Positions 29,258 to 29,933 of a stretch of 33,445 nucleotides of DNA are shown in pieces (the first letter of the stretch is position 1; every line of letters starts with the position of its first letter). Source of the DNA: a virus (taxonomy: Duplodnaviria > Heunggongvirae > Uroviricota > Caudoviricetes); the IMG/VR virus record IMGVR_UViG_3300045988_112031, positions 1 to 33,445 of that record; one strand, written 5' to 3'. Below the pieces are notes generated by a model. It saw only the letters and a program-made list of their open reading frames with translations. It ran no database searches and was not told the DNA's origin. The position numbers were made by a program, and so were the translations under genes.

Positions 29258-29277
29258 TTAGAGTTGTGGTGAATGCG
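29258..29277 (+). repeat. 20-bp direct repeat copy 1 (TTAGAGTTGTGGTGAATGCG) at the predicted pL transcript start
   Basis: 19 of 20 identical to copy 2 at about 29914-29933; each followed by a GC-rich imperfect palindrome. Confidence 0.5.
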
Positions 29278-29369
29278 CAGGCTGATGCGCGAAAGACATT
29301 GCAGCTATTGCGGAAAAGAGCTGTTCGGCGGGGCCATTAAACGCCCGTATCTGGAGGTTAAAGAACAAA

Positions 29370-29645
29370 ATGAAAGTCCAGATTTTAAACAATAGTGGTG
29401 AAGTCGTTTGGTCATACGACATAGCCGCTCCTGTAGATCAGAGCGGCGATAGCTGGACCAATGGGAAACATCAGATTATGGCTGGAGTTGTGTTCTCTTT
29501 ACGCCGTGCTTTAGAACAGGCTGAAGTCTTTCCATCAGACCCTGAATGGAAATGGCCTTTTTCTATTTGTCCAAATTCGGAGAGTACATTTCAGAAAATT
29601 GGTCAGAAAGTCGCACTCGAAGAGCATCAGCCAACTGTTTCCTGA
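29370..29645 (+). CDS. hypothetical protein, first gene of the pL operon (not N-like)
   Basis: 91 aa; GGAGG Shine-Dalgarno 12 nt upstream; no arginine-rich N-terminus; 3' end overlaps the convergent ORF 29563-29808. Confidence 0.45.
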   Translation: MKVQILNNSGEVVWSYDIAAPVDQSGDSWTNGKHQIMAGVVFSLRRALEQAEVFPSDPEWKWPFSICPNSESTFQKIGQKVALEEHQPTVS

Positions 29646-29808
29646 TTTTTTCAGGTAACTCGTCGGCATCGCAGAAACAACAACGCTCGATCATGTTGAA
29701 AGCCGATTCGTAGAACTGTTTCTGCTGAGTGTCGCTGAGACAGGAAAAGAGCGACGTTACGATGATTTTATTAATTGCATTATCAAGTTCTTTTTCATCA
29801 AAAGTCAT
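29563..29808 (-). CDS. hypothetical protein (81 aa) antisense within the pL operon
   Basis: AAGGA Shine-Dalgarno 7 nt upstream of ATG; contains a CCFCD motif; convergent with and overlapping the 3' end of 29370-29645 by about 80 bp. Confidence 0.4.
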   Translation of the reverse strand: MTFDEKELDNAINKIIVTSLFSCLSDTQQKQFYESAFNMIERCCFCDADELPEKIRKQLADALRVRLSDQFSEMYSPNLDK

Positions 29809-29913
29809 TTGATTTTCCTTTTATGTATACGGGCTTAAAAGGATACCACCGAGCCTGAAGTGGTGAAAAGACAGGCACATAACAGCTAAGTATTTTTCAA
29901 CCAAAGAGAATCC

Positions 29914-29933
29914 TTAGCGTTGTGGTGAATGCG
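29914..29933 (+). repeat. 20-bp direct repeat copy 2 (TTAGCGTTGTGGTGAATGCG)
   Basis: See copy 1; lies at the start of the roughly 300-bp structured non-coding region preceding the yfdP-like gene. Confidence 0.5.

Follow-up and report, generated by a model that had tools for sequence, protein, structure and literature searches.

A direct repeat in the early-left operon of a temperate phage as the common 5' module of a modular structured-RNA family

The repeat and its locus

The window analyzed here, 33,445 nucleotides (nt) of IMG/VR virus record IMGVR_UViG_3300045988_112031 (Caudoviricetes), contains a 20-bp direct repeat whose two copies lie in the transcript predicted to start at the early-left promoter, pL. 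Upstream of pL, on the same strand, is a CI-type repressor gene; downstream, in order, are copy 1, two small open reading frames (ORFs), copy 2, two terminator-like hairpins (T1 and T2), and yfdP (Table 1). Temperate enterobacterial phages have a family of modular structured RNAs, and the repeat is the 5' module common to two of its members: a short leader and one strand, the 5' one, of the closing helix P1, then an AAU junction and the start of a hairpin, H1. In terms of that family, the window holds a type B member that scores below the threshold of the Rfam family STnc100, begun by copy 2, and a fragment of an undescribed type A variant of this known kind of prophage RNA, begun by copy 1.

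Copy 1 reads TTAGAGTTGTGGTGAATGCG and copy 2 reads TTAGCGTTGTGGTGAATGCG; they match at 19 of 20 positions (95%) with a spacing of 656 bp (repeat finder, family D2). The direct repeat named in the original prediction is borne out by this identity, by a 15-mer core, GTTGTGGTGAATGCG, that is identical at 29263-29277 and 29919-29933, and by dinucleotide-preserving shuffles, none of which (0 of 100) held two copies of the core. No third copy was found on either strand of the window at up to two mismatches (chance expectation, 0.12). The GC-rich imperfect palindrome described after each copy was also recovered, as hairpin GCGCA-GGCUGA-UGCGC (29274-29289) 3' of copy 1 and hairpin UGCGGC-UCAGC-GC(A)CGCG (about 29930-29947) 3' of copy 2. 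As a side observation, the loop GGCUGA of the first hairpin (29274-29289) is complementary to the loop UCAGC of the second (H1 of copy 2, 29931-29946).

Copy 1 had been placed at the pL transcript start, which is plausible: the promoter and operators put the predicted start at about 29258-29260, 3 to 5 nt 5' of the core. The 18-bp operator recurs in a third copy at 28420-28437, between cro and the repressor gene, and six matches were reached in none of 100 shuffles. In related phages, copy 2 lies at the homologous position in SfV, SfIV, ST64B, 118970_sal3, phiES15, and e14 and, in a diverged form, in LLS, whereas copy 1 occurs only in phages with the same immunity module; SfV and e14 do not have it. 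Conservation at homologous positions, on which the original prediction staked its case, is thus wide for copy 2 and, for copy 1, confined to phages that share the immunity module; the core itself is conserved even in distant relatives.

Table 1. Features of the pL region, in window coordinates (MFE, minimum free energy; aa, amino acids)
Feature	Position	Strand	Description or basis
CI-type repressor gene, HTH and S24 LexA-like peptidase	28483-29136	+	ORF list; Pfam HTH_3, Peptidase_S24
Intrinsic terminator after repressor gene, CCGGGG-UAU-CCCCGG and T-run	29157-29182	+	Read from sequence; homologous SfV position annotated as terminator
18-bp operators	29199-29216, 29234-29251		Flank or overlap pL, bracketing the -35; inverted repeat I2
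Predicted pL promoter, TTGACA-18-TACATT	29223-29252	+	Promoter scan, 10 of 12 matches
Repeat copy 1	29258-29277	+	Leader UUAGA, P1 5' strand GUUGUGGUG (29263-29271), AAU junction, first bases of H1
Truncated type A RNA element, 5' 91 nt	29258-29348	+	H1 (29274-29289) intact; 3' half of centre, H4, and P1 3' strand missing
SfV orf33-like ORF, 91 aa, function unknown	29370-29645	+	phrog_3195, E = 8e-64; no Pfam match; inserted module
Opposite-strand ORF, 81 aa, function unknown	29563-29808	-	phrog_3311, E = 3e-55; inserted module
Repeat copy 2	29914-29933	+	Degenerate boxA-like tail UUAGC, P1 5' strand GUUGUGGUG (29919-29927), AAU junction, first bases of H1
Complete type B RNA element	29919-30042	+	MFE fold, STnc100 alignment, covariation
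P1	29919-29927 with 30034-30042		9 bp; 3' strand CACCACAAC
H1 of type B	29931-29946		MFE fold
Three internal hairpins of type B	29952-29976, 29979-29990, 29993-30017		MFE fold
H4, CCGGG-AGGCA-CCCGG	30019-30033		Equals STnc100 consensus
Conserved single strand UUUAUGCUGUGUGUAGUCC, then DicF-like terminator T1	30043-30109	+	Fold and conservation
T1 stem	30063-30075 with 30091-30103; T-run 30105-30109		13 bp; z = -3.1
T2, second very long terminator-like hairpin	30110-30198	+	Arms 30110-30134 and 30174-30198, ends UUUUGU; inverted repeat I1
yfdP, first protein gene after RNA and terminators	30247-30609	+	ORF list; phrog_204; RefSeq annotation
yfdQ/DUF2303, next gene after yfdP	30675-31499		Pfam DUF2303

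Architecture and covariation of the RNA family

Copy 2 begins a complete element. The sequence CACCACAAC, which is reverse-complementary to bases 1 to 9 of the core, has a single occurrence, at 30034-30042, and the complement of the full 15-mer occurs nowhere in the window; because the helix partner of the 15-mer occurs only once, copy 2 alone completes its own structure. A single-sequence MFE fold of 29914-30046 recovered P1 and the hairpins within it: H1 on the 5' side, H4 on the 3' side, and three more between them. Moreover, the STnc100 model (RF02076, positions 1-206) aligned full-length to 29897-30112 with 39.5 bits (E = 8e-7 locally and 2e-5 over the whole window), with the repeat core aligned to the outer helix as its 5' strand. 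The hallmarks of STnc100 were found at copy 2: an outer closing helix with an inner GGUG/CACC, of which copy 1 has the 5' strand alone; a 3' hairpin, H4, adjacent to that helix together with a 5' hairpin carrying a bulged A, both at copy 2 only; and an intrinsic terminator of its own at the 3' end, in the form of T1. A permissive Rfam scan gave no STnc100 match at the copy 1 region. Further elements were sought in the window by structure-aware and permissive whole-window Rfam scans, which returned copy 2 only; three other pattern matches, all in structural genes and lacking H1 and H4, were near chance and were set aside. Three ORFs that overlap the type B element, at 29922-30149 (+), 29929-30609 (+), and 29886-30083 (-), are likely spurious, and similar ones appear in several phage records.

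The wider family was sampled by IMG/VR scans anchored on the 5' core and, against bias, on the two kinds of 3' hairpin, with at least 120 contigs each. Its layout is that of a 95- to 160-nt multi-helix domain: optionally a boxA-like motif, UGCUCUUU, then the P1 5' strand, AAU, H1, a hypervariable centre of 40 to 110 nt, H4, and the P1 3' strand, with (G/A)GUGAAU as the junction consensus. Two types are distinguished by their hairpins. In type A, represented in the window by copy 1, H1 is GCGCA-GGCUGA-UGCGC and H4 is GCCGG-AGAUCAGCA-CCGGC; in type B, represented by copy 2, H1 is either UGCGGC-UCAGC-GC(A)CGCG or the STnc100 form CCCCC...GGGG, and H4 is CCGGG-AGGCA-CCCGG. No Rfam family matched the type A element at E <= 0.01, and the STnc100 model does not detect it; type A is thus absent from Rfam, and the early-left type B variants fall below the STnc100 threshold.

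The predicted helices are supported by compensatory changes. Among 56 diverse, pre-selected representatives, double changes occur at 8 of the 9 P1 pairs. The covariation score, 0.62, was reached by none of 500 shuffles, which score 0.18, and the signal was lost when the register was slid. The 3'-anchored sample provides explicit P1 variants (GAUUGGAUG/CAUCCAAUC, AAUGCAGUG/CACUGCAUU, and GCUGCUGUG/CACAGCAGC), in which the outer five pairs change in compensation while the inner GGUG/CACC is kept. The outer five nt of the core are free to change provided that the 3' strand changes to match, and selection therefore acts on the pairing rather than on the sequence as a site. The type A H1 occurs as GCGCA/UGCGC, GCACA/UGUGC, GCGAA/UUCGC, GAGCA/UGCUC, and GCCGG/CCGGC; the type B H1 changes from CCC/GGG to GGC/GCC between its two forms with the bulged A kept; and the H4 stem varies around an unchanged AGGCA loop (GGUGG/CCACC in LLS, CCUGG/CCAGG in Qin). 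Over 50 diverse phage contigs thus contribute compensatory changes in support of P1, H1, and H4. Since the stems covary while the loops and junction are invariant, the family would be a folded RNA that touches something conserved.

In most members UGCUCUUU, an 8-mer that we take to be the core of boxA (the rrn boxA core), lies directly 5' of P1, with one such motif per element even inside tRNA arrays. At copy 2 it is degenerate (GAAUCCUUAGC), and at copy 1 there is none because the promoter abuts the copy; the "TTAG-N" of the 20-mer in the original prediction is the tail of this boxA-like leader. In type A, GCUGA of H1 is complementary to the H4 loop (UCAGC / AGAUCAGCA), and we hypothesize that the two loops could kiss within or between elements. 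Both loops are nearly invariant, and a covariation hint came from one contig only (L115). The same contig has T-arm-like GGTTCGAATCC motifs in its variable centre, and the order P1 - 3 nt - H1 - variable part - H4 - P1' recalls a tRNA cloverleaf on a larger scale.

Immediately 3' of the type B element, the UUUAUGCUGUGUGUAGUCC strand and the T1 motif are kept in e14, ST64B, phiES15, and LLS. T2, which has a stem of about 22 bp (-47.8 kcal/mol, z = -6.3) with A- and U-runs on both sides, is kept in e14, ST64B, LLS, and mEp460. An alternative pairing of the antiterminator/terminator kind, between the 3' arm of H3 (CGCCAGG) and the 5' arm of T1 (CCUGGCG), was rejected when, on our own inspection, its complementarity proved not to be kept in ST64B.

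Truncation of copy 1 and recombination

In Lys8385Vzw and several Stx2c phages, which carry the repressor gene, operators, and pL of the window, pL leads into a complete type A element that includes a CACCACAAC strand and then into the same T1, T2, and yfdP. The copy 1 region is identical to the start of the Lys8385Vzw element and then diverges at 29348/29349 (BLAST breakpoints, query positions 124/125); homology with SfV begins at 29368, and the module in common with SfV consists of both small ORFs and the type B element. No 3' partner strand of its own was found for copy 1 in the window, and the fold of the remnant is no better than that of shuffles (z = 0.03). Only the first three features of the family layout are present at copy 1 (29263-29289), against all of them at copy 2, and copy 1 is therefore a fragment rather than a family member in its own right. 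By these sequence comparisons, copy 1 is a relic of recombination that lacks a 3' strand, an H4, and a terminator of its own; the type A element was cut at 29348/29349 by the arrival of the module that carries the type B element and the two small ORFs. The two copies are alike because two RNA modules share ancestry, not because one factor must bind twice. The two ORFs of the inserted module are convergent and overlapping, and the minus-strand ORF would be transcribed against pL.

Three natural arrangements share the same pL: (i) pL with a complete type A element (L007, L108); (ii) the window arrangement, which phages 720R4 and SKA5 share, as do 32 of 5426 complete E. coli genomes; and (iii) pL joined directly to type B (L339, L340). 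The third is, on its sequence, the exact product that would be expected of a crossover between the two repeats of the window. A reciprocal chimera, with an SfV-type flank and a type A body, was found in 18 contigs. All four combinations of flank and body, together with the predicted deletion product, were thus found, and for this reason the locus offers a clean natural example of a conserved RNA module of 15 to 20 nt as a crossover point in phage mosaicism. The common 15 to 20 bases would double as a point at which modules are shuffled between phages because they are conserved; such a role would be a consequence of their conservation and not their function.

Once explained as a relic beside an intact copy, the repeat itself is ordinary; what it exposes is a structured RNA that is very common and has largely escaped annotation. 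Of the 5426 complete E. coli genomes, 2900 match some part of 29200-30250. Relatives occupy two settings: early-left operons upstream of yfdP or yfdR, where both types occur, and late regions upstream of nanS-p-type esterases, holins, and lysozymes. Late-region members often form tandem arrays of 3 to 5 units, every unit having a terminator of its own, or are embedded in tRNA arrays. The arrays have a period of about 253 nt (tRNA and tandem examples in L243, L255, and L294), and the P1-like plasmid pE2863-2 (L335 930-1400) has a complete type A element, 4 nt, tRNA-Ser, and then a type B element. Two unannotated copies are present in E. coli K-12, one in e14 (at "ymfH") and one in the dicF-dicB spacer of Qin. 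In e14 (L336 3001-3391), the gene named ymfH, between ymfI and xisE, overlaps a type B element with T1 and T2 that is about 91% identical to that of the window, and the ymfH ORF is probably spurious; the literature found for "ymfH" held nothing relevant to e14.

Candidate functions of the intact unit

The repeat, the structure with its covariation, the truncation, and the natural variants are observed directly. By analogy with known prophage RNAs, the intact unit, which from copy 2 to the end of T1 (29914-30108) measures about 195 nt, is most likely a processed early-left small-RNA precursor. We consider it likely overall that copy 2 starts an intact type B RNA of the early-left operon, probably the precursor of a processed small RNA (sRNA), and that copy 1 is a type A stump left by recombination. 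On derepression of pL, the transcript would fold P1 around the type B domain, and part of transcription would stop at T1 to give an RNA of about 195 nt. On the model of Qin, where DicF occurs as 190-nt and 53-nt species, RNase III or RNase E could then trim this RNA to a small regulatory RNA like DicF, and the structured domain would serve as a folding, stability, or processing module.

In the dicBF operon of the cryptic K-12 prophage Qin, DicF is a 53-nt RNase E product accompanied by a 190-nt species with an RNase III-dependent 5' end (Faubladier et al. 1990, as cited in Ragunathan et al. 2023, bioRxiv 10.1101/2023.04.14.536235). The 190-nt precursor, like the window unit, belongs to a repressor-controlled operon of early-left type, and its layout of a 5' domain of about 137 nt, DicF of about 53 nt, and an intrinsic terminator compares with the 195 nt of 29914-30108. 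By length, its 5' end would lie about 5 nt before GGUUGUGG, next to the boxA-like GUGCGCUUCC, upstream of dicF. Both the repressor-controlled early-left position and the terminator of the DicF-type setting are present in the window, and the T1 module is 58% identical to K-12 DicF, with the core UGGCGGUAYCAGUUU common to the two. The order differs, however: in Qin a type B element follows dicF, whereas in the window it precedes the DicF-like module. This Qin element (L338 1952-2087) has a 16-bp P1, a fold with z = -4.3, an STnc100 score of 34.4 bits, and an H4 of CCUGG-AGGCA-CCAGG.

PasD and STnc100 provide the second comparison. Both were reported as abundant Hfq-associated prophage sRNAs, mostly next to Q, and they share with copy 2 the outer helix with GGUG/CACC, the AAU, the 5' hairpin with a bulged A, the variable middle, the single strand, and the terminator. 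Type B is likewise prophage-borne; Hfq association is reported for PasD and STnc100. PasD and STnc100 sit next to Q, stx, or nanS-p, whereas copy 2 is in an early-left operon. The family thus joins three things that have been treated separately, namely, the STnc100/PasD sRNAs of pathogenic strains, the long DicF precursor, and the leader with double terminator of N-less lambdoid phages, and through this link DicF-type RNA production and N-less early-left expression become testable with simple constructs.

Several points weigh against a processed precursor beside an inert stump. The copy 2 unit, at 39.5 bits, misses the STnc100 gathering score of 47 bits, and the DicF model (RF00039, threshold 48 bits) gave 15.6 bits at window positions 30050-30104 and 28.5 for the e14 homologue, against 76.7 bits for K-12 DicF as a control. 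In Qin, the domain upstream of dicF is without the GGUGAAU junction and its fold is unconvincing (z = 0.19), so that layout and size carry most of the 190-nt analogy; to STnc100 and PasD themselves the literature assigns no function. As for covariation, the 56 P1 representatives had been pre-selected for at least 8 of 9 pairs, with the unfiltered P1 variant table showing the same pattern, and H4 sequences were search anchors, so that H4 is invariant by design within the 3'-anchored sample. The pL start is a prediction. Two strong terminators before yfdP in N-less phages are not explained by a pure sRNA-precursor model. Finally, copy 1 is unchanged in three phages and 32 genomes and could pair over 13 bp with 30034-30046, and a residual role for it is therefore possible.

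The terminators are central to a second reading, which we regard as unlikely, although it fares better than the others: the type B RNA (type A in the sister phages) would be a cis-acting, N-independent processive antiterminator, put-like or nut-like (boxA plus structured RNA). Perhaps aided by Nus factors at the boxA-like motif, the nascent RNA would alter RNA polymerase so that it reads through T1 and T2 into yfdP, xis, and int, and the two copies would be two polymerase-modifying sites, one of them defective. That the family is the missing early antitermination device of N-less lambdoid phages with yfdP-type operons (SfV, ST64B, e14, LLS, mEp460, and some Stx phages) is a correspondingly tentative proposal; it would make the family a second class of polymerase-modifying RNA, unrelated to put, and the window the site of one dead and one live copy. 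In a variant of this proposal, the RNA would be a scaffold resembling a tRNA cloverleaf, assisted by Nus factors, with a variable region as its "cargo".

Operon organization speaks for antitermination, a role that would account for the tandem terminators as well as for the boxA-like motif and the invariant loops. The order pL - RNA element - T1 - T2 - first gene holds in every yfdP-type operon examined (window, SfV, SfIV, ST64B, e14, LLS, mEp460, and Lys8385Vzw), T1 and especially T2 are strong hairpins, and no N-like antiterminator family was detected with Pfam or PHROGs in the pL-proximal ORFs of the window, e14, phiES15, and 118970_sal3. The authors of the LLS genome found N absent and speculated about a put-type RNA that they did not identify; LLS carries its diverged type B element exactly where such an RNA was guessed. 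Invariant loops and junction with covarying stems would be expected of an RNA that binds a conserved host machine, and type A begins at the pL transcription start, as putL does. In phage HK022, put is likewise a structured RNA at or near the pL transcript start of an N-less lambdoid phage, upstream of terminators, which it suppresses in cis in dependence on the zinc-binding domain of RNA polymerase beta', and the element described here could also act in cis. However, put is about 70 nt with two stems and has neither closing helix nor variable centre. Read directly, putL and putR bear no sequence or model resemblance to the family, the STnc100 model has no match in the early region of HK022, and homology to put was rejected. 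HK022 also has one put per early operon (putL and putR), whereas the window has one element here and no second one in its rightward operon. A lambda-type nut system is likewise not evident: although most family members, like lambda nut sites and rrn leaders, have UGCUCUUU (presumably the boxA core) directly 5' of the structure and then a hairpin with an invariant loop, lambda relies on the phage N protein and a 15-nt boxB, whereas here the domain is 95 to 160 nt and no N-like protein was detected in this or the related pL operons scanned. The boxA-like motif is, moreover, degenerate at copy 2 and absent at copy 1; speculatively, from what is known of Nus factors, it could instead aid long-range P1 formation, as proposed for rRNA leaders.

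Distribution argues further against antitermination. Many members lie in late regions served by Q, in arrays of 3 to 5 units with their own terminators, or in tRNA arrays 4 nt from a tRNA, settings that stable trans-acting or processed RNAs fit better than antiterminators, and relatives accumulate as terminated, Hfq-bound sRNAs. A nutL/nutR-like pair on opposite strands of one contig (L012) was rejected as such: one element is in a late region (tRNA - element - terminator - holin), and the other adjoins an insertion sequence element.

The original prediction took the two conserved copies to suggest a cis-acting RNA or DNA site. A non-random, cis-encoded RNA feature in a repressor-controlled pL transcript does survive; a 20-nt site used twice does not. 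Of the functions then proposed, RNA processing and antitermination are still live for the RNA feature, and one factor binding twice is not required. That the 20-mer is a self-contained site for a regulator, RNase, or antitermination factor, required twice and functional in both copies, is very improbable: the exact 15-nt match, the hairpin after each copy, the presence of both in one predicted transcript, and the conservation of the core in distant relatives would all suit it, but the outer five nt of the core vary freely with compensation in the 3' strand, close relatives manage with one copy (SfV, e14, Lys8385Vzw, and L339/L340), and copy 1 is accounted for by truncation at a mapped breakpoint.

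Least probable of all, and hardly to be expected, is an active copy 1 whose leader and P1 strand, UAGAGUUGUGGUG, pair over 762 nt with CACCACAACUUUA (30034-30046) and so compete with copy 2, form an RNase III-substrate stalk around the inserted genes, or act as in the seqA/seqB/seqC arrangement of P4 (one segment, two upstream repeats): the complementarity of 13 nt (12 Watson-Crick pairs and one G-U; I5) exceeds the contiguous 9 bp of copy 2, Qin shows RNase III action at the corresponding 5' position, and the arrangement is kept in the three phages and 32 genomes, yet the nearer strand (103 against 762 nt) should have the advantage during transcription, the P1 strand of the remnant is sequestered locally in its predicted fold, no covariation can be assessed for the long-range pairing, the full 15-mer is without a complement in the window, and natural variants on the same immunity module do without copy 1 or without the insert.

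The tRNA-like C4 RNA of P1/P7 and CI RNA of P4 resemble the processed precursor that we favour in being small structured RNAs cut from longer phage transcripts, with a long closing helix and related repeats in the transcript. The Rfam C4 model gave no match at the repeat region, however, and the window has no antisense target of the 15-mer; a genuine C4 RNA lies elsewhere in it. At 26991-27192, on the minus strand, Rfam identified a C4 antisense RNA (26991-27078, 77.8 bits) and an isrK RNA (27103-27179, 78.7 bits), with a c4-a1b1 target element at 27140-27192 (-) scoring 44.5 bits against a threshold of 46.7. This region is on the rightward-operon side, downstream of ymfL/ymfM-like genes, and looks like an antisense-controlled module of the P1/P7 or Gifsy type; the same C4/isrK pair is present in Lys8385Vzw (L007 137-322).

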